The notes under the pieces are model-generated. The model was not told the origin of the DNA and did no database searches. It worked only from the letters and a program-made list of their open reading frames with translations. Position numbers and translations under genes: made by a program. Source: Catajapyx aquilonaris (Eukaryota). Taken from it: DNA of 20,000 nucleotides. Within the stretch, counting starts at the first letter, position 1, and every line of letters begins with the position of its first letter. Of the stretch, positions 1,420 to 20,000 are shown in pieces. The stretch spans positions 55,595 to 75,594 of the forward strand of contig KZ538793.1 of the NCBI GenBank assembly GCA_000934665.2. The letters are read 5' to 3'.

Positions 1420-3158
1420 GGCCTATACGAGGAATCAGCTCATATCGTTGTGGAGGAACCGAGGAACCCAACCAACCCAAGTGTTGCACATGCTGCCTGC
1501 TGGTAAACAATGCAGAAACATATGAAGAGGGCAAAGAGCCAGAATATGATAGTGCATGCTGGTCTGTAGCTGATGTGCGTTGGGGTTTGGAGGATAAAAT
1601 GCCATGCGGTAGCCACTGGCCTGTTACTGTTGGGAGCATGACAGAAATACAGCGTTATGACAGCAGTCTAGGCGTGCATGAGCCGCCCAACAAGATCGTA
1701 AAGCCGTCTTTTACGAGAGCAGGCCCATCATGATGCTTGGCCGGCCGCCACTGTCCAACCAACCAACCGACCTGCTGGTTGCTGGGGGTGGCTGAGATGA
1801 GGGGTTGAAGGAAGAACTCTTCTCCGAAAACCTACTGCTGCTTCGTGCCAATGAAGGACAATAAGTAATAAAGCGATCGTGTATCCTGCATCAGTGTTGT
1901 TTTCTCCTCTCTGGCACATACAACATACCGGATGGCCCACCGACACTTCACCCCTCCTCTATTAGGCAGTGTATAATGAAGAAAAGAATTTCCAACCTTT
2001 TAATTAATGGTATTCAAGCAGCAATAGGAATGCGGACCAAATTACACGCAACGCCTACTTTCACTTTTCAAACTTGTTTCAAACTGTGCTTCCAATTATG
2101 GCTCAGGCCAATGTGTTCCGTGATTATTATTATTGCTCTCCTTTTTATCTCCTAGCCAGGAATGGCCGTAATGATCCATGTCTATGTGCGATGCTTTGAA
2201 TTTAGCAACCTGTGACACACGCCCGATGCACTGTGCCATTGCCCGGATTAGTCCGGTCAAAAGAGTCGGGCATTCCCCCCATCCCAGTCCCAGCAAAGCA
2301 ATAGCCGCAGTGGCGACAGACAAAAACGGTTTTCCTTCCGAAAGAGTCCTCTTTTCATGCTAAGTGCAGGCAGTCCAGCCGGAGGACTAAACAAGGGGCA
2401 ATGACAGTGACTCCTAGCTGGCGAGTCACCTTTTGCTGGCAGACCACTTCAAAAGTCGGGAGCCGGCCTCGGGAGGGGACCCAAAACAGGATCAACATTT
2501 TTGGAAACAAGGCGTGACTGACCCCCTCAGAGGTGTCCCTTGCCAATAAACTCAATTTTCATCCTGACTTTTGGTGGACCATGCCGCACCGTGCTTTTAA
2601 GCCCTCCTTTGTTGCCGCCAATGACAGGTGGATCGCTCAGGTAGATGGCCACTGTGGCTTGTGTGCAGTTACTAGGCGGCGTGTCTGGAATTAGGGAAGT
2701 TAAGGTGTGCTAAGTTAAGTATAGTAGGCGATTCGGGGACTTGTGTCGGATCTTGCAAGGTCCAGGGAGCCAGCCACGATTTGTCCGGGATGAACATGAC
2801 AAAGGTTCTGGCTTACACCATATAACTGGTCAACCCTATACTGTATATATGACTCCCCTAACTGGCTTACACAGGTTGTTCCTATATAAAGGTGTGCAGT
2901 CTCTCTCGGATTAACATGTGCTCACAAGCTTGCCAACAAGTTTTTCTAGCAAGCTTATGTGAACACATCTGGGGGTCCTGAGAGATATGGCAAGTATTGC
3001 ACCATCCGATTTTGGCGATTTCGGCTTCATTACAGAGATAATCGCATTTCGATGTTAGTTTCGTCACACGAGTCACGCATGTAATGATGGTCATCCTGAA
3101 GATTATTACACCCCGAACTCCCGGGTCATGGGTCGCCTGAAAACAAGTCACAAATGTA

Positions 3159-3183
3159 GGGGGGGGGGGGGNNNNNNNNNNNN
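3159..3183. other. Poly-G run abutting an assembly gap (N 3172-3183)
   Basis: Read directly. Confidence 0.97.
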
Positions 3184-4259
3184 NGAGAATAAAATTGTGG
3201 AAGAAGCAACCGGTGACGACGAGGCAGACAATCAGACACTTTGGGTTGCCCCTAGACACGCGGCAACACACACAGCACCCTATTGCACAGAGATCATCTG
3301 ACATGAGAGATGACCCGATCACCTTACAATAGTTGCCTATGGAGGTATATATGGGCGTGATAATCATTGCAGTACTGATGGGATTTCGAAAGTCGCCTAT
3401 TTTGCAGCATGGCCACTTATTGACCAATGATTATCCTCCTTATCGCGTATTTTAATTCACATGATTGTGTCGGGAGGCATTATAGTATTTGTGTCGCCTA
3501 TATCCTTAAAGCCGTCGAGTTGATGCAAGTAATCTTTGTCTCAATAAGTTCATAACCTCCATCTCAGCTCAAGATTGTAGATCATCATCAAGTGAAGTAT
3601 AAATGAAACCTCAGAGGTCAATCCATCATTTAGAAAGCACAGGTTCACCAACTTCATACACATCCTACAGATTTCCTTGGCCCTTAACTATATCATTTAG
3701 GCTATGAATAATACGTGCAGGTATTTGTGTTCAAGTAGCACTATACTGTGTCTGGACGAAGATGAACCTGTATATCTGAAGCCCAACATTGTCCGGAAGA
3801 GTGAGCCAAGTTGGCGTGCAAAAAAAACAAACCCGGAGGCAGCAACCTACGGTGAGCAGGCAGGCAGTCAAGGCGTTAATAAAGGGCGAAGGCTGTAAAT
3901 AAAATCCTTTAATAAAGGGGAAGAGGAATCACCTGTCCCAAGACCTAATAGGCCTAATGGGCTAAGCCCATAAAGCCGGAAAGCCGCTGCGAGCCGGACA
4001 TTACACGATTTTGCTGCTGGGGTTGCTGTGGCAACCGAGGTGACGAGGCGATCCCAAACGCTCATTCCCCAGCAAGGTGCCACACTAATTGCACCTTTTC
4101 CTCTCCCACTTGCCCACCCACCTCCATACCCTATAGCACAGTCTATGTAGTTCTGTACAGCCCATCATTCGCAACAAAGCATGTGAAACTTGCCTACACT
4201 GTCCACTAATATTGAGCGGAGCTTGTTTTCACATATTTTCAAATATTTATATTAATTTC

Positions 4260-4313: not shown

Positions 4314-4978
4314 CAATGTGTCTGATGCAGATGAGTCATATGACAGCCCTCTTGCCCATTTGATGCACCTTATAGTGACGTGTATTAGGTTGTTCTAAAT
4401 TTTACAGGACATGAGTAACACAGGGGGTGTCACATTGCACACCCAAAAAATACGCAATCATTATTCTTCTGTATTTTGTTGTGACAGTGTAGCCTATATA
4501 TTGGTCTTCAAACATGCATGTGCATAATTAGAGGTTAAATAATGTGCGATAAAAATTCATCAATATCAGTCTTATCTAGATTATCTTTGCAATATCTAAG
4601 AAGCCTACAGATGAATGACTATATAGGTTTATTGGATGCTGGAGCTACGTAGATAAGTTAAACTACCCTGCAAAATTTAAATAATTTTCTGCGGCACAGG
4701 ATTTCATTGATGACCCATAACCTATAATCCAAGGGCTCTGATTTTAAATATGCTTTCCATTTTCCACTTTTACGTTCGGTTTTCTTGCAATGATAATGTG
4801 ATTAAGTTAATTTGAATATATACAGTAGGCCCTACTATTATTTTGTACAATTGTTACATACCATGAAAATGACCAAAAGTGTTCAGGAAACACAGAAAAA
4901 CAGTGTAAATGTTTTTCAAATAAATAATCAAAGCTAACTAAGGGAACTTTTCGGTGACATATCCATAATACAGTATAC

Positions 4979-5407
4979 CAGGGTGATTCCGGTAACTTTG
5001 GCAAAAATCACAGGGTGCTGGGTAGAGGCCCCATAGGCACGTATTTTGAGTTTCGATACCCATGTCCGGAAATGCCCCCATACGGGGGTACGGCCGTTTC
5101 CACCTTTAGTATGTTGCGCCTGGTGGGTAGTCAACCCATCGTACTCGAAGGTTGCGTTCATCAGGTTTTGCACTTGATACTCGCAATTGTTTTCACCTTC
5201 GTCTCCTCCACACGCGACACACATGATAAACGCAAGTTTCGAGTACGGTGGGTTGCCTATACCCACCAGGCGCAACAGACCAAAGGTCGAAACGGCCGTA
5301 TCCCCGTACAGAGGCATTTCCGGACATGGGTATCGAAGCTCAAAATACTTGCCTAGGGGGCCTCTACCCGCCCTGTGATTTTTGCCAAAGTTAACGGAAT
5401 CACCCTG
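4979..5407. mobile_element. Tc1/mariner-type MITE with long (~185 bp) terminal inverted repeats
   Basis: Ends CAGGGTGATTCCG...CGGAATCACCCTG; arms 4979-5163 and 5224-5407 are reverse complements with scattered mismatches. TA flanks at 4976-4977 (one extra C at 4978) and 5408-5409. No coding capacity; the mirrored ORFs in the track are artefacts of the palindrome. Confidence 0.92.
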
Positions 5408-5752
5408 TATTAGTGCCCTTGGCCTTCCTTATCGAAACAAATGAAACCAAGTAGAATCGTTTGCCGTGGGTCATAGAGCTGACTATGCTTCCCAGGCTTG
5501 CACCCATATATGTTATATTATACTCGAGCCTCTTCCTGAGTGAGGCAGTTCAGACGAAGGCGCCAGGTGGCCAAGATGCCCTGCAGCAAGTTTAAGAGCG
5601 CCTATTTGCACTTGCAGAATACTTCAGTAGAGTATGAAGGAATTGTGCCAACACCTTGTACAGGATGTTTGTGAAGCAAGAGCAACTAGTCTTAGTGGGA
5701 AAACTTGCGTCTTGTAGCTGCCAGTGAAAAATCAACAGTACGTGGATCTGAA

Positions 5753-5915
5753 TTGGTCATTTTGTGAACTCACCCGGGTGGATATTTCCACCCGAAATGA
5801 AGCCAGAGATGGCCCAACTCTGCACGGATAAAGGTGGAAACCCCGGGTGGGGATTGAACCCGGGACCTTCATATCCGTGGGCGCGCGCGTTACCGCGGCG
5901 CCACTTCATCTCCCC
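5753..5915 (-). mobile_element. Short, tail-less copy of the tRNA-derived SINE family
   Basis: Minus strand begins ggggagatgaagtggcgccgcggtaac (A box) and contains ggttcaatccc (B box). It matches the 5' half of the copies at 6167-6580 and 7557-7967 and is flanked by a 9-bp direct repeat ggatctgaa (5744-5752, 5916-5924). Confidence 0.9.
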
Positions 5916-6166
5916 GGATCTGAAGGATTAAGAGTAATGAACACACAACATACACACAATCCACTCCTCAGAAAAAGTCAATGTAGTGTATTCAATCAGA
6001 AAACATAGGAGTATACTGTAGAAAAACAATGTGTTTGAAGGAATTGTTTTCTACATGGATTAACATAATTTATTGGCAAAATGCTTGATGTGATGCATAA
6101 TCAAGTGAAAAAATTCAATTTCATCCATAATTCCAGTGCATGTGGGGGTGCCACAGTGGCTTACAA

Positions 6167-6188
6167 CAACAACAACAACAACAACAAC

Positions 6189-6249
<61 letters not shown>

Positions 6250-6580
6250 TCCGGGGTAGTGCTGACCTCATCAGAGGTGTGTAGCATGGACCTTTATTAA
6301 TTTTTGTCGTGTACATTGGAGCCTTTATACGTAACTCCCGGGCCCACGGGCAGGATGACAGGAGGGGATGTGCATGGTGCAGTGCATCTGACGCTGTGGC
6401 CATTTTTAGTGAACTCCCCCGGGTGGTTTAGTCTGTGGAAATACCACCCGAGACGAAGCCAGAGGTGACCCTGAACTCTGCACGAGATGAAGGGGGTGTC
6501 CCCAGGTTGGGATTGAACCCGGGACCTTATTAACATCCGTGGGCGCGTACGTTACCGCAGCACCACTTCGCCTCCCCAAT
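6167..6580 (-). mobile_element. Full-length tRNA-derived SINE with (TTA)n(TTG)n tail
   Basis: A box tggtgctgcgg and B box ggttcaatccc on the minus strand; body aligns along its length with 7557-7967; tail 6167-6248; 14-bp target-site duplication acagtggcttacaa (6153-6166, 6581-6594). Confidence 0.95.
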
Positions 6581-7556: not shown

Positions 7557-7890
7557 AGGGAGACGAAGTGGCGCTGCGGTAACGTATGCTCGTACACCTA
7601 CAGATGTTAAGGTCCCGGGTTCGATCCCAGCCCGGGGACACCCCCTTCATCTCATGCAGAGTTGAGCGGCCGTCTCTGGCTTTGTCTCGGGTGGTTCCTT
7701 AGACTAAACCACCCGGGGGAATTCACAAAACGACCACGGATAAGACATTGCACTGCACTTTGCACATCCCCTCCTGTCATCCTGCCCGTGGGCCCGGGCG
7801 CTTCGTCAAAGGTTCCAATTGTGTACAAATTGTACAAGTTAATAAATAGAGGTCCGTGCAGGTACCCTGAGGGTGAGCACTACCCCCACA

Positions 7891-7958
<68 letters not shown>

Positions 7959-7967: not shown

Positions 7968-8521
7968 TATGCTAAATTTCTTCCCTGATTGGTTATGATT
8001 TCATGGTGCAATACGTAAATAAAGGCTCTGCAGAGCCATGACGGCTGATCCCTACGAACCAACCAACCAGCCAGTCACTAAAAAGGGACCACTGTAAAGT
8101 GCTACATACTCGTAACTGTATTACCAAGAGTACGGTACCGGATTTAACAGCCTTGGCTATTACAGACTTTAGGTTACAGCAGTCTCGAAAGGCTGGTCCC
8201 GCAATACTTCCATACATGGCCAGTGCATTTAGCTACTACAGAGTACAGACCTCGGATTTAACAGACTGATTTCCGCGGTCCATTGAAGCCTGTGATATCC
8301 GGAGTCTGCTGTATTATTATTAAGAGTTAAATTCCCGCATTTCTGTAAATTCTTAAGCTGAGAAGGCAGAAGTAGAATGTTAAATAGACCATGGTAGGAA
8401 CCAACCACCACACTACAACTCGCAATGCCATCTGTCCAAAGTATTTAGTAGCCTATCTGTAATAAAGTGATTGCAAGTGTTATTATTAAGGATTTACAGT
8501 GAACAAAATGTTTTCAATCTA

Positions 8522-8945
8522 CAGGGTGTATCTGAACTCAGTGCCCCGACGCATATGACTGCCTTCCTAGCCACCAGAGGATCGATTTAAGTATAGGAAT
8601 CATTATGTCTGGCTGCCGCATTACGGAGATAATTGGCCGCAAACATGTAGTACAAAATATCCTGTCGGTTAGGCCACCCATCGAACCCTCCCCCAGTCAG
8701 AAGGCTCTGGAAGGTCTGGGGGCGGGACTTTGTTGGTTTGTTGCCCACAGGTGGTAAGGCCTCTTTGGCTAGTTACACCAGAAAATTATATTTAGAAGTC
8801 AGAAGGAGCGATTAGGCAAAAATCGCTAAAGAGTGTATCTCCGTAATGCGGCGGCCAAACATAACGATTCCTATACTTAAATCGATCCTCTGGTGGCTAG
8901 GAAGGCAGTCATATACGTCGGGGCACTGAGTTCAGATACACCCTG
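8522..8945. mobile_element. Tc1/mariner-type MITE with 110-bp terminal inverted repeats
   Basis: TA|CAGGGTGTATCTGAACTCAGTGCCCCGACG...CGTCGGGGCACTGAGTTCAGATACACCCTG|TA; arms 8522-8631 and 8836-8945 are near-perfect; TA TSD at 8520-8521 and 8946-8947. Confidence 0.95.
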
Positions 8946-9018
8946 TATATTTTTTACATTGGGTTAACAAAGATAATATTGGGCCAAATAATGCTATTGA
9001 TGGGCTCTAACAGTAGCT

Positions 9019-9162
9019 TTAATCATCTATTGTGATAACTTCCACCACGGGTTGGCCGTTCCTCCTCCGGGCCTCGGCCGCCTGCTGCAGCAGGTGGTAA
9101 ATTCTCAAGACAATGCGCAGGCGGCGGCGAAACTCAGCAACGGCCGCAGTCCACTCAATTGG
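9019..9162 (-). CDS. Terminal coding exon (paralog A) of an unidentified gene; helix plus C-terminal SIM-like motif
   Basis: Acceptor cttgtcttttccacag| then phase-0 frame PIEWTAAVAEFRRRLRIVLRIYHLLQQAAEARRRNGQPVVEVITIDD* (TAA 9019-9021). Homologous to 19140-19298 with frame-preserving indels and many synonymous differences. Not in the ORF track. Upstream exons not resolved. Confidence 0.72.
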   Translation of the reverse strand, partial: PIEWTAAVAEFRRRLRIVLRIYHLLQQAAEARRRNGQPVVEVITIDD

Positions 9163-9185
9163 CTGTGGAAAAGACAAGTGAGTGT

Positions 9186-9322
9186 ATGTGTCAATCTGAT
9201 GACCATGGCACTCATGTGAATGTAGCCTGATACCCGGTTCAATATTGTGTAGGATTTAGGTAATTTATGCATAAAACCAGGTCGACATAATCACACATCA
9301 CTTTTTTTTGGCAAAAGTACAT
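9186..9322 (-). other. Conserved intronic block (copy A), candidate structured RNA or splicing element
   Basis: Aligns to 19326-19456 with long exact runs (tcatgtgaatgtagcctgata; gtaatttatgcataaaaccagg; aagtacattga; tgtgtcaatctga). Function is inference. Confidence 0.5.
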
Positions 9323-10071
9323 TGACACGAAGAGGGACTAATAGAAGCAGTTGCTGTGCCCTGGATATAATTATTTATAATAGTAATATCTTACTTGGAA
9401 TAACGACAATTTTAGTGGCACTCCAACTTATGAAACAAAACTAATAATCTGGGGATGACATCATGTTGACTATGCCTTCAAACTGGTATCCAAAAATTTA
9501 GCTGAGTTAATACCCATATCAGTTTGTGTGTCGTATGTAAGTGTGTATGGGTGGGTGGGGAGGGTTGTCCAAAATCAAAGACTCATACAGTCATAAGAAT
9601 TAAAAGGTGGGGGATGACTGATGGGGGACTTGCACATTTCATTGCATGCATTGAAATCCATGTAATACATTTGCTGTAAACACTTTTGTAGTTAAAAGGT
9701 AATGGAGTTTAAATTTCTGCTGGATGAAAAGCTCCTTTGTTCAATTAGTCAATTTCCAACTAGTGTTCTACTGACATGCAATTTTACATGTTTCTTTTTG
9801 CTGTTAGCTGGGGAGGAGCTAATAATGATACAAATAATTATACAAAATGCCTTTATCTGCGACCCTCTAGATTTCTCGTGTTTAAGTTTTACTGCGTTTT
9901 TTTTGTTATTATCAAATTGCTCTTATGTGCTACCTGCTTTCACGGGTAGAGTGGCACACCAGTAAAATTGGGGGTGACCCGATTTTTAAAAATCCCCATA
10001 TTGTGGTGGCTATACCAGAATGCTGGTATGTATAGAGTGAGGTTTTTCCTATTTACATTTTACCTGAATAA

Positions 10072-10586: not shown

Positions 10587-10970
10587 TTCCAGAGATTTCT
10601 TCTACATGTCAAAAAGTTTTATGTAGGCACGAATCTGTCTATGTATGTAGGAGTGGGGTGACATGCTGGAAAAAATATTGTTGAACTCTCCTGGATATTG
10701 ACACCCAGAAAACGCGGAGGTATAGCGGGCAGCGTTGTAAGTTCTTGGGTACTCGAATGGCTGTTGGCCATGGCAGGCAATGAGGATATGACACTCGGAA
10801 AAAGTCTAATACGAATTGTTGCGTGGTCGGGTGCCACCAGTAATACAGCCGAGGTGTGCCTGGAACTATGCTCTACACGTTTCCAGGAAAGCTCTGGGAA
10901 AATGAGTAGCGCGACTATAGTGGATTCAGGCAGTGAAAATGATCAAGTTTGCTCAAGGTTTGCTTCATGA
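10587..10970 (+). pseudogene. Decayed coding-like segment, paralogous to 12085-12388 (-)
   Basis: Long frame with one stop (FQRFLLHVKK...G*HAGKNIVELSWILTPRKRGGIAGSVVSSWVLEWLLAM...). 10696-10756 aligns to the reverse complement of 12322-12388 (shared tattgacacccagaa, cggaggt, S.WVLE). Confidence 0.4.
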
Positions 10971-10984
10971 GAAATGTTGATGAG

Positions 10985-11310
10985 CACTCACAAATCGCTC
11001 CAGGGGCGGGCTGCCCCGGGTCGGATCCTCCCCAAAAGAGGGTCAATGGGAAGGGCAAGATTATCTTAACCCCCCAAAAAATCCAGGGGTCGGTCTGCCC
11101 CAGTGCCAGCCGCCCAGATTGGAGGAGCAGACGAGAGGCCAACCCAAATGCACGGAGATCGTGCAATGCCGACTTGCTCCTCCATCTATGGAGGGCTAGA
11201 CCCGGGCAAACCGCCCCCTGGATTTTTTGGGGGGTGAAGATAATCCTGCCTTTCCCTTGACTTGAGTTTGGGGAGGATCCGGCCCGGGGCAGCCCGTCCC
11301 CGGATGAGTG
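10985..11310. mobile_element. GC-rich palindromic (foldback) MITE-like element, diverged
   Basis: Arms about 10999-11131 and 11174-11304 are reverse complements (cgggctgccccggg.cggatcctcccc; aagattatctt.acccccc aaaaaatccagggg; ggaggagca). Outer cactca/tgagtg. No clear TSD. Confidence 0.8.
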
Positions 11311-11609
11311 AATGCAATATTGCACTTTTGTTTATTTTGCATATCATAAACTCATTAAAAGGCACATGTTGACACTGCAATAAATTATGTAAATGTACTG
11401 TACTAGCTCACTGCCCATAACAGTACTGACCACCACATAGGCACATATGGTGCAAGAATAGGGGATCATATTGTAAATATTTGGAGGCAATATGTTGGAT
11501 TATTAATTGATTATCTTATGAAAGTGAAGACGATGCTGCACTGTGAGCACCTCCTGAAAATGGAGAAGAAAAGCATGCAACAACATGCACTGCAGTTCAG
11601 ACTGACCTA

Positions 11610-16232: not shown

Positions 16233-16619
16233 TGATTGTCCACGTCCATTGCTTGCTTTTTCTCTAGCACAGAAGCTGCAATGACAAGGAACAAGACAGT
16301 GTCATTGTGTCCCTATTTTCAAATATATGCTTCAGATACTCAATACCTGGTATGTTGGGTGGCCTGGGCTTATAATCACAAGCCCATGTAAGTTTCCATA
16401 CAAAGTATAAAAAAAACCATGTAAATTTTTTCAAGTACAGGGTATCCCACTCGCTACTTTACCTGACATTTCTTTAATAACTTTAACACAAACTTACCTT
16501 ACTTAATAACCTCATTATCTGAGAACGGAAATGGCATCACAACATGTGCTGTAAATGACTCCTATTTGTGCCCATGGGCAAGGCAGGCCTGAACACGACG
16601 CTCCACATTTTTGAAGGTC
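16233..16619. repeat. Direct duplicate of 17723-18111 (NOG1 exon pieces, intron and left end of the mariner derivative)
   Basis: Near-identical over about 390 bp at an offset of about 1490, with a few substitutions and small indels. Confidence 0.95.
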
Positions 16620-16681
16620 ATGGTCTTTAACTGTTGTATGAATTGGTCACTGGAACTCCCAAGCACAATTGATCTGTAATG

Positions 16682-16874: not shown

Positions 16875-17878
16875 TTAACGCCGATCAGTCTTCCCAATTC
16901 CCCGTTTTCCACTGAACAGATGTTTGGGCATCTTGGCATAGATGGACCGATCCGCTTCACCCGTTTTGCCCTTCTTTACAAACAGGTTGTGATGAGACTT
17001 GATGGCAATCTTCGACACCTTCCTCTTAGCCTATGTATGAAATATAGTTTATGGTTACATTTGAATATATTTTTGGAGGCCTAATCATCATATTGATAAC
17101 GATACTAACCTCAGCATCGGGCTTAGACACAGACCGGTTGCGAGTGAAGTGGGCCTACAAATTAAAATATTGTTACTTGACTGCTAACTCTCATGGTTTT
17201 ACACAGTTATACCTCCTCTGTTCCAGACATGTCCACTCCCAGCGTTTCCATTTCACCTCTCAGTCGACTAGCACTTCTCCCCCGCTTCATGGCCCCTGCA
17301 GTTCTTGGTACAACTGGTTTGGTGCTGCTCTTTTTGATGTGGCTCAATCTTGAGCATTTTCTTCTTGTATTTGATCTTGCGGGCAAGGTCCCCGATCTCT
17401 TCCATAATCAGAATCATCATCAGGAAGGGGTGATTCATAAAATCCTGACGGCAACCTCAGTATAGTTGTTCTTCCTTCTCCAACTCCTCTAGTTTCTGTA
17501 ACAAACAATATTCATTAGAAGTCTTTCATCACAGGATCTTCATGCATGTCACAAGACCTGTAGTATGTCAGGATCAATGTAATCTGCAATATTGTGCCCT
17601 TCCCATATTCCAGGGATGGCATCATATTTGTATCCTCTGGTAGATCATAAGTTTTCTCCAGATCCAGGATGTAGTCATCACCCATCTTCTCCTCAATGTC
17701 TCGTTCTAGCTCTAATTTTGGTTGATTATCCAATTCCATTGCTTACTTTTTCTCTAGCACAGAAGCTGCAATGACAAGGAACAAGACAGTGTCATTGTGT
17801 CCCTATTTTCAAATATATGCTTCAGATACCGTACTCAATACCTGGTATGTTGGGTGGCCTGGGCTTATAATCACAAGC
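16875..17878 (-). pseudogene. NOG1: Nucleolar GTP-binding protein 1 C-terminal region; unprocessed, 5'-truncated pseudogene
   Basis: Exons: ~17878-17842 (CDYKPRPPNIP); 17765-17558 ([68 protein letters not shown]); 17495-17213 (KLEELEKEEQL*.../...MEEIGDLARKIKYKKKMLKIE/HIKKSSTKPVVPRTAG...EMETLGVDMSGTEE); 17154-17110 (AHFTRNRSVSKPDAE); 17030-16875 (AKRKVSK...[31 protein letters not shown]). These motifs match the NOGCT domain and C-terminus of NOG1/GTPBP4. Four GT-AG introns of 76, 62, 58 and 79 bp. Stop at 17743-17745 and several frameshifts; GTPase domain absent. Confidence 0.95.
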
Positions 17879-17933
17879 CCATGTAAGTTTCCATACAAAG
17901 TATTTAAAAAAACCATGCAAATTTTTTCAAGTA

Positions 17934-18605
17934 CAGGGTGTCCCACTCGCTACTTTACCTGACATTTCTTTAATAACTTTAACACAAACTTACCTTACTT
18001 AATAATTATTTCATTATCTGAGAAAGGAAATGGCATCACAACATGTACTGTAAATGACCACTATTTGTGCCCAGGCAGGCCTGAACACGACGCTCCACAT
18101 TTTTGAAGGTCCTGAGGCACTGCCTTAATTTCTTGGATGATGTTTTCTTTCAAGGCGTCGATGGATTGTGGTTTGTTTCAGTATATGTGCCACACATCAC
18201 ACGTCATCATGGCCAAAATGCAGTCCTTTTTTGGCAACTGAGTCAGTTTGAAGGGATTTTGGTCACTGTGTTTGCCAGATCTTATGCTGCCTGATTACTT
18301 CTTATGGGGCTATCTGAAACAAACCACAATCCATCGACACCTTGAAAGAAAACATCATCCAAGAATCTCAGGCAGTGCCTCAGGACATGCTGGCCAGGAC
18401 CTTCCAAAACAGCAAAATATGGAGCTTCACGTTCAGGCCTCCCTGGATGCAAATGGTGGTCTTTTCAACCACATGTTCTTTCAACAACATGCCATTTCCG
18501 TTCTCACATAATGAGGTTAGTTCAGTTCAAATGTTGTTGCGATATCTTCATTTGTGTTAGAGCTATTAAAGAAATGCTGGGTAAATTAGTGAGAGGGACA
18601 CCCTG
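17934..18605. mobile_element. Non-autonomous Tc1/mariner (rosa/DD41D-related) derivative made of two inverted 3' ends
   Basis: TA|CAGGGTGTCCC...GGGACACCCTG|TA. Plus-strand remnant from 18188: CHTSHVIMAKMQSFFGN*VSLKGFWSLCLPDLMLPDYFLWGYLK.../LKENIIQESQAVPQDMLARTFQN/MELHVQASLDANGGLFNHM. Minus-strand remnant from about 18190: NKPQSIDALKENIIQEIKAVPQD/FKNVERRVQACLGTNSGHLQYML*. Confidence 0.9.
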
Positions 18606-19139
18606 TACAAGTGGTGTCTAGTCAAGTATATAAATTTTATTCAATATTTTCTATCAGTAAATCATTAAGTCACCAATAAACACCTTAATGACCAAGGCAT
18701 GTATGTCATTTGCATATTTCATCAGCCCACATCACAGAGTGTGAAAATCCCCTGTTATGCTACAGCATAACAATTTCTGAGAGATAAAGGGAGTCCGGGA
18801 GGTTACCAAGAATGAAATACCTTTTTGGTAACATGATCCTTCGATGAAGGCATGTTGGGTGAAACGCACCTTCCACATATAAAACTGCCGGATTCGTGAT
18901 ATCTTATATTGCTTGTGAACAACTGTTGCTGTCTTCCACTGAGGTTTCCATAGCATAATGACGATGAACTCCTACAAAGACCAAATCAGCTTATTTAAAT
19001 TACACTAATTGGAAGATATAAAGTATACAATAAGGCATTACCTTAATCTTCTTATTCTTTCTTTGTCCTATAATTGCTTTTGAATCCATGATTGGTGTTA
19101 TATAAAAAATACAGAAACAAATGTCATGAACAAAATACT

Positions 19140-19298
19140 TTAATCTAATGTAATCACTTCCACCACCTGGCCCGACCTCTGTCTGGCCTCAGCAGCTCTG
19201 ACTAGGCGACCCAGAAGCCGGCCTGCAATCTTGTAGTTGCGGTAAAATTCCCGTATGGCTTGAAGCATAACAGTAGTGGCATCCTCTGGTCCATCAGG
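19140..19298 (-). CDS. Terminal coding exon (paralog B) of an unidentified gene; helix plus C-terminal SIM-like motif
   Basis: Acceptor cttgtctttttcacag| then phase-0 frame PDGPEDATTVMLQAIREFYRNYKIAGRLLGRLVRAAEARQRSGQVVEVITLD*. 15 of 31 identities to paralog A over an ungapped core, plus the shared VVEVIT[I/L]D tail. Confidence 0.72.
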   Translation of the reverse strand, partial: PDGPEDATTVMLQAIREFYRNYKIAGRLLGRLVRAAEARQRSGQVVEVITLD

Positions 19299-19325
19299 CT
19301 GTGAAAAAGACAAGTATGGAATAGG

Positions 19326-19456
19326 TTGTGTCAATCTGAAAACCACGGTCATGTGAATGTAGCCTGATATCTGGCTCAAATATAGAGAAATTTGTGTAAT
19401 TTATGCATAAAACCAGGACCACATATCACACACCACTTTTCTGGACATAAGTACAT
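19326..19456 (-). other. Conserved intronic block (copy B), candidate structured RNA or splicing element
   Basis: Aligns to 9186-9322; see findings. Confidence 0.5.
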
Positions 19457-19513
19457 TGAGATCAAGAATAATTAATGAAGAGAGAGGGGGAAGAGGGAGG
19501 GAGAGTAGGGAGG

Positions 19514-19595
19514 NNNNNNNNNNNNNNNNNNNNNNNNNNNNNNNNNNNNNNNNNNNNNNNNNNNNNNNNNNNNNNNNNNNNNNNNNNNNNNNNNN

Positions 19596-19635
<40 letters not shown>
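19514..19635. repeat. Assembly gap (N 19514-19595) followed by a (GA)n microsatellite
   Basis: Read directly. Confidence 0.96.
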
Positions 19636-19638
<3 letters not shown>

Positions 19639-20000
19639 GGGGTGTTGAAAATCAAATAACCCCATATGGATGTGCCAATTTCATTTCCTGCAGCAAAATC
19701 AATTCAATATTTGAAGACCACAGGGGAAAAAGGGGGAATGTCCAATTCCATTGAGTTTGCTGCCAAGTGCACATTACAATAGTAGCGTAGGTGCCCCTTA
19801 CACCTAGAGGGTGCCCATGGGTAGAAGTGAGTTAGTTCCAGAGATATAATGGCTTGAAGATATCCCGTACTGGGGAAGAACGAGGAACGTCCACGTCGTA
19901 CATGGCAGAAAAGGGGATAGTCCAAAACGCGCAATGACGTCCCTGGCGGACACTGCTTGTGCTGGCCTGTTTTGGACCAGTCGGCTTTTAACATCCTTGC

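Follow-up and report, generated by a model that had tools for sequence, protein, structure and literature searches.

The DNA analysed here, referred to as the window, comprises 20,000 nucleotides of contig KZ538793.1 of Catajapyx aquilonaris. It is animal-like, repeat-rich DNA, which carries on its minus strand two related segments that have the appearance of terminal coding exons. The first of these, copy A, spans positions 9019 to 9162 and comprises 47 codons with the stop codon at 9019-9021, while the second, copy B, spans positions 19140 to 19298 and comprises 52 codons with the stop codon at 19140-19142. Both are putative exons, delineated by translation and, in the case of copy A, additionally by homology to copy B. 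Reading copy A from 9162 to 9022 yields the 47-residue peptide P0001, PIEWTAAVAEFRRRLRIVLRIYHLLQQAAEARRRNGQPVVEVITIDD, followed by TAA, and reading copy B from 19298 to 19143 yields the 52-residue peptide P0002, PDGPEDATTVMLQAIREFYRNYKIAGRLLGRLVRAAEARQRSGQVVEVITLD, likewise followed by TAA. Both peptides end in a hydrophobic-acidic tail resembling a SUMO-interacting motif (SIM), which reads VVEVITIDD in copy A (9022-9048, minus strand) and VVEVITLD in copy B (19143-19166, minus strand; both sets of coordinates were derived by hand from the exon starts).

Each of the two frames begins directly behind a putative splice acceptor. The acceptor contexts are cttgtcttttCcacag followed by CC in copy A and cttgtcttttTcacag followed by CC in copy B, with cttgtctttt[c/t]cacag lying immediately 5' of either exon. 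Pyrimidines occupy 12 of the 14 positions ahead of the CAG in each copy, and a TTGAC site resembling the branch-point consensus is common to both copies about 30 bases upstream of the acceptor. An initial interpretation made from the letters of the DNA, hereafter the sequence-only reading, had described two minus-strand segments with these peptides, a near-identical acceptor, phase 0 and an aligned stop, and all of these features were reproduced. In addition, the similarity extends upstream of the acceptor into a conserved non-coding segment, a new observation which that reading did not contain. In copy A this segment covers positions 9163 to 9345 on the minus strand (183 bases) and includes the branch-point-like site, the pyrimidine tract and, at its end, the acceptor AG; in copy B its counterpart, delimited by blastn and alignment, covers positions 19299 to 19480 on the same strand (182 bases) and also ends in the acceptor.

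In the window, open frames of this length are common, given that its 20 kb hold 107 stop-to-stop ORFs of at least 60 amino acids, and a simple rule recovers 40 acceptor-like sites, i.e., about one per kb per strand. Hence, the case for coding exons rests on the pattern of conservation between the two copies. Base composition changes at the exon borders, as the G+C content of copy A amounts to 0.576 within the exon vs 0.388 upstream and 0.407 downstream of it, and that of copy B to 0.522 vs 0.352 and 0.258, respectively. Within both exon segments, moreover, GC1 exceeds GC2.

The relationship of the two copies is apparent from their peptides. In BLASTP the two copies align over 40 residues, 22 of which are identical (pairwise E value 7e-11), and in a tblastn search of both strands of the whole window each peptide retrieves the other copy at an E value of about 2e-8, the next matches having E values of at least 0.45. 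A protein-guided alignment places the stop codons opposite each other and introduces gaps of 21, 3 and 3 bases, in agreement with the previous claim that indels are multiples of three. Likewise, the differing codons quoted at that time for conserved residues are present in this alignment as the synonymous pairs GCG/GCT, GCC/GCT, CGG/AGA, GTT/GTG and ATC/ATT.

Constraint differs along the exon. The tail block, comprising the last 18 aligned codons, differs at 13 of 54 bases and at 3 of 18 residues. When 13 changes were placed at random (40,000 trials per setting, with transition weights of 1, 2 and 4), three or fewer residue changes resulted with P values of 1.3e-4 to 7.3e-4 (0.013-0.073%), and the Nei-Gojobori estimates for this block are a pN of 0.117 vs a pS of 0.611. 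The helix block, formed by the preceding 21 codons, has diverged to 24 identical bases of 63 (39 differ) and 7 identical residues of 21, with a pN of 0.55. Its hydrophobic positions align nevertheless and the changes fall on the exposed ones. The BLOSUM62 score of the block, 26, was reached by 0.063% of 100,000 shuffles (P 6.3e-4). Frame specificity is equally pronounced: over an ungapped block of 30 codons the BLOSUM62 score is 61 in frame 0, as opposed to 26 and 0 in the remaining frames, and within the aligned block frames 1 and 2 contain stops in one or both copies, whereas frame 0 is open throughout in both. Therefore, phase 0 at the acceptor is the only coding reading. Taken together, the constraint on the tail, the score of the helix block, the frame specificity, the gap lengths and the step in G+C content show that the two copies were coding in frame 0 while they diverged. 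The two segments are thus homologous coding sequence in which the tail and the helix pattern have been subject to purifying selection at the protein level, as the sequence-only reading had proposed.

Along the entire unit, identity amounts to 79% in the intron segment, then drops to about 38% and rises again to 76%; the divergence tracks codon positions. Sensitive blastn around both copies revealed no similarity past the stop codon or further upstream of the unit, where the comparison on the side of copy B ends at a (CT)n tract with an assembly gap beside it. Two assembly gaps are present in the window (at about 3170-3190 and 19509-19600, 96 N in total), the second of which adjoins this tract. 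An nhmmer search of the window recovered the conserved non-coding segment in two copies only, both on the same strand. Aligned with each other, the two intron segments occupy 188 columns with 140 matches, 37 mismatches and 11 gaps (79.2% identity over 178 bases in blastn). The gaps measure 1, 1, 1, 3 and 4 bases and disrupt any frame, and the segment is hence non-coding. A small ORF starting from an ATG upstream of copy B was considered and rejected, since this ATG is out of frame in copy A and the upstream frame is unconserved. In the exons, 24.2 of 34.7 silent sites differ, corresponding to 0.70 per site, while the intron segment shows 0.209 differences per site (Fisher P 8e-8). The better preservation of the intron segment points either to constraint or to recent homogenisation between the copies up to the edge of the exon. 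Because the silent sites are saturated, the age of the copies and their evolutionary rate are inseparable.

In RNAalifold the two best-kept blocks of the intron segment can pair with each other; the resulting stem has about 21 pairs, encloses a loop of about 44 bases and could be adopted by either copy. The corresponding hairpin of copy B (19343-19440, minus strand) is imperfect and has a folding energy of -28.6 kcal/mol with a z score of -2.96, while the counterpart in copy A (9205-9305, minus strand) has a z score of 0.06 and folds no better than shuffled sequences. Compensatory changes occur in none of the 27 predicted pairs. In view of the z score of copy A and the lack of compensatory pairs, the hairpin remains putative. 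An Rfam search of the whole window yielded nothing at the gathering score and, around both copies, chance-level matches only (E 1.2-4.3); an intronic snoRNA or miRNA was rejected on the grounds of this blank result and of the zero compensatory pairs.

It is conceivable that the functional element of the unit is non-coding, namely a duplicated regulatory or RNA element built around the 183 bases and the hairpin, next to which the open frame would be incidental. The intron segment is indeed the best-conserved DNA of the unit, and its stem is available to both copies with a favourable z score in copy B. This explanation leaves the frame-specific tests (P <1e-3 in two cases) unaccounted for, however, and it is further weakened by the shuffle-like folding of copy A, by base pairs without compensation and by Rfam matches with E values above 1. 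Hence, we grant it only a slim chance.

The surroundings of the exons are shaped by repeats and by a processed pseudogene of NOG1/GTPBP4 (nucleolar GTP-binding protein 1), located at 16878-19001 on the minus strand and interrupted by many stops and frameshifts. Its residues 5-58 are encoded at 19001-18846 and residues ~376-665 at 17775-16878, while residues 59-375 are absent and replaced by repeat sequence. The sequence-only reading held that other coding-like segments of the window carry stops, which is consistent with this pseudogene. Tryptophan occupies several arginine positions in it. A pseudogene fragment returned 23 matches, of which the named best ones are arthropod (one ostracod, two thrips and three cladocerans), in keeping with a probable arthropod source. 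A direct repeat of about 390 bases with 92% identity (16233-16622 and 17723-18114) holds a second piece encoding NOG1 residues ~369-392 at 16235-16377, and thus the junction of pseudogene and repeat has itself been duplicated; a weaker inverted copy lies at 18414-18608.

Downstream of copy A, a MITE-like element occupies positions 8516 to 8951. It consists of two inverted arms of 116 bases (8516-8631 and 8836-8951; 95.7% identical) with a spacer of about 200 bases, and the end of its arm, ACAGGGTGT, is found again near 18641 and 17974. Another repeat is present three times (5754-5915, 6183-6576 and, inverted, 7558-7956) with 74-81% identity and may be SINE-like; ARAGORN detected no tRNA in the window. 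Palindromic inverted-repeat elements at 4934-5428 and 10915-11331 contain mirror-image ORFs on the two strands, for which no Pfam match was obtained. Between the two exon copies there are only two G+C-rich islands, one of which (10961-11320) corresponds to an inverted-repeat element.

These surroundings bear on the possibility that the segments are dead relics, i.e., exons that once coded, in an orphan gene or in a tandem duplicate since decayed, and that are now neither spliced nor translated. Apart from the pseudogene and the density of repeats, such decay would fit the insertions close behind both exons, since 68 bases separate the copy A stop from the start of the MITE-like element 3' of it, and about 140 bases separate the copy B stop from the first aligned residue of the NOG1 pseudogene. 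It would also fit the lack of a canonical poly(A) signal nearby: no AATAAA or ATTAAA occurs in the 1.5 kb 3' of the copy A stop, the nearest AATAAA of copy B is at +501 from the stop and within the pseudogene/repeat region, and the signals closer to the stops are weak variants only. Moreover, no upstream exon for copy A is evident in the 9.8 kb between the copies, where the minus-strand ORFs, aside from the NOG1 pieces, have no Pfam match, the exon peptides are absent from the protein collections searched, and frames this short may escape stops by chance even once function is lost. On the other hand, neither copy has acquired a single stop or frameshift over its 47 or 52 codons, as opposed to the neighbouring NOG1 pseudogene, and the acceptor, the pyrimidine tract and the 183-base intron segment have been kept above the level of silent sites. 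An identity of 79% in an intron is hard to reconcile with relics unless constraint is ongoing or conversion was recent, and we consider this explanation unlikely.

Relatives of the exon peptides were sought in several collections. The word-indexed search for longer proteins in 5.8 billion clusters gave 105 candidates, none of them at an E value of 10 or below, and a HMMER profile of both peptides found no relative among 1.84 billion representatives. The single match of this profile, P0003 (E 7.7e-4), is a repetitive NGQP-x-VEV-x-LD protein that aligns in five stretches at profile positions 37-53, those of the tail, only and was dismissed as a low-complexity coincidence. None of 600 pattern matches in metagenome contigs was confirmed. 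A profile search of the PDB returned one chance match, to haloalkane dehalogenase (E 0.89), the ESM Atlas provided no usable match for the exon peptides, and a literature search for the peptide strings did not find them. In the collection of 1.84 billion representatives, the protein P0004 shares 28 consecutive identical residues with the NOG1 pseudogene and may originate from a close relative. As this collection may therefore include such a relative and yet lacks the exon peptides, the result argues mildly against ordinary expression of the exons.

The domain content of the window was assessed with Pfam on 248 ORF translations of at least 40 amino acids from both strands (45 + 112 + 91). About eight ORFs composed largely of N runs or homopolymer-like repeats were omitted from this set (e.g., 3059-3301, 3141-3329, 6069-6281 and 6109-6297; further omissions were 6161-6427, 19401-19703, 19411-19659 and 19472-19645). 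The sole interpretable matches in the set were the two NOG1 pieces. Neither the ORF of copy A nor that of copy B belongs to a Pfam family; a match to a known transposable-element ORF, which the sequence-only reading had named as evidence that would speak against it, was thus not obtained for either of them.

These searches are pertinent to a further explanation, according to which the segments are gene fragments of a mobile element or an endogenous virus whose multi-copy lineages diverged under selection while active. In a repeat-dense window, peptides for which no cellular relatives were found would be in line with such an origin, and selection between element lineages could produce the same excess of silent changes. 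However, no transposase, reverse transcriptase or integrase emerged among the 248 translations at the thresholds used, and 67 pattern matches in 2.9 million viral contigs left no confirmed relative. Besides, the 20 kb hold just the two copies, both on one strand and without similarity beyond the unit of about 340 bases, and the common part starts within non-coding sequence and stops at the stop codon. We therefore regard an origin from an element or virus as quite improbable. A special variant would take the copies for the two long terminal repeats (LTRs) of a single old LTR retroelement of 10.4 kb, given that they lie in direct orientation to each other, 10.1 kb apart. This variant is disfavoured and can practically be set aside, for the divergence is uneven and follows codon positions, the sequence between the copies yielded no gag, pol or integrase domain, and the interior contains an unrelated processed pseudogene as well as other repeats.

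Regarding the protein product, AlphaFold2 predicts copy B as a single helix of residues 4-41 followed by a non-helical tail, with a mean pLDDT of 86.9. The input consisted of the isolated 52 residues and a two-sequence alignment, the remainder of the protein being absent, and for residues 42-52 the non-helical prediction has a block pLDDT of 70-81. Together with the diverged helix block and the conserved tail described above, this prediction agrees with the earlier view of a variable helix bearing a fixed tail. The review PMC8616421 gives the SIM core as hhXh or hXhh (with h being I, V or L) flanked by acidic residues. Measured against this consensus, the tail core V-V-E-V-I of both copies satisfies both forms and is followed by Asp, so that the core of the SIM-like pattern ascribed to the tail was borne out (consensus from PMC8616421). 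The same review describes the consensus as degenerate and many putative SIMs as probably not real (PMC8616421). The acidic complement of the exon tails is small, comprising one Asp (copy B) or two (copy A) after the core and one Glu inside it, and the upstream flank is basic, with RRRNGQ preceding the core. HP1-type motifs take the form PxVxL; a corresponding reading of QPVVEV was rejected, as the Pro is found in copy A only.

The most likely mode of action of the tail would be that of a short linear docking strand. Since its core fits hhXh/hXhh and is then followed by Asp, the SUMO groove would be the best single docking candidate, though binding to SUMO itself is a tentative proposition about which we are more doubtful than confident. 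The sequence-only reading had envisaged a fast-evolving family of SUMO-binding adaptors of the kind known from chromatin silencing or host-TE conflict; the two copies seen in the window do not support the term family, and the adaptor, silencing and conflict roles would be candidate functions.

Comparison with known systems reveals partial resemblances. The PIAS core reads V-[E/D]-V-I-D-L-T, to which the exon tails are very close in letters. With PIAS-type SIMs they also share the fit of VVEVI to hhXh/hXhh, the subsequent T-[L/I]-D(D) and a predicted non-helical position behind a helix. They differ in having a minimal acidic flank devoid of a Ser/Asp/Glu run or phosphorylatable serines, and in being placed at the extreme C-terminus behind the basic RRRNGQ. 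Homology of the exon peptides to PIAS or to known SIM proteins was not found in Pfam, profile or PDB searches. Daxx terminates in a SIM, and there, as in the exon tails, a hydrophobic core with acidic residues closes the polypeptide. The serines of the Daxx SIM add charge once phosphorylated (PMC8616421). The exon tails, by contrast, have no serines, and no sequence relation to Daxx was found.

With respect to gene architecture, tandemly duplicated alternative exons, or alternative last exons, whose adjoining intron sequence is conserved are a known arrangement. The unit described here resembles it in consisting of an intron end and one exon with a common acceptor context, and in combining a conserved intron flank with diverged peptides. 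It departs from this arrangement in having no documented upstream exon, junction or poly(A) site, and two tandem genes are only slightly less likely. In snake-venom phospholipase A2 genes, introns are better conserved than exons, and the values of the present unit (0.21 differences per site in the intron vs 0.70 at silent sites, and a pN of 0.55 in the helix block) are reminiscent of this pattern, whereas the unconserved 3' flank and the restriction to two copies set it apart. Old age combined with constraint on the intron accounts for the data equally well.

Weighing these lines of evidence, we lean, with somewhat better than even confidence, towards the two copies being, or having been until recently, real 3'-terminal coding exons that arose by duplication of an intron end together with the last exon. 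The duplicated unit of about 340 bases would comprise the last ~183 bases of the intron and the final coding exon. If the conserved acceptor is used and the exons are expressed, splicing in phase 0 would add 47-52 residues to the protein. A short, variable linker would come first, leading into an amphipathic helix of basic character that spans about 38 residues; a break at G-Q(-P) would follow, and VVEVIT[LI]D(D) would end the protein. Within the helix, the hydrophobic positions would be retained while the exposed ones are altered. As no upstream exon is visible for copy A and the intron flank is conserved, there is a slight lean towards the copies being alternative last exons of a single gene situated past base 20000 rather than the ends of two tandem genes, and in the former arrangement the common intron segment may act in the choice of splice or 3'-end sites.

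A more far-reaching proposal would combine these elements into a lineage-restricted gene, probably arthropod, with two alternative C-termini, in each of which a basic helix that diversifies rapidly would carry a fixed tail docking to SUMO, with the conserved intronic element selecting between them. In our estimation this has little chance of being correct in full. If it were true, it would represent an exon evolving faster than its own intron, in a manner reminiscent of venom and immune genes, and would suggest a conflict-driven, SUMO-dependent adaptor. At present, the locus stands as an ordinary annotation gap with a plausible motif rather than as a demonstrated SUMO system, and the pair most likely represents unannotated, lineage-restricted exons. 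Provided that the exons are used, they would either mark a gene that is so far unannotated and has no detectable relatives or constitute a pair of alternative C-termini, and the intron segment, being kept above silent sites, would be a candidate splice-regulatory element. The short docking tail would then be the only fixed feature of the encoded C-terminus, making this pair a test case for the retention of a motif on a drifting helix.
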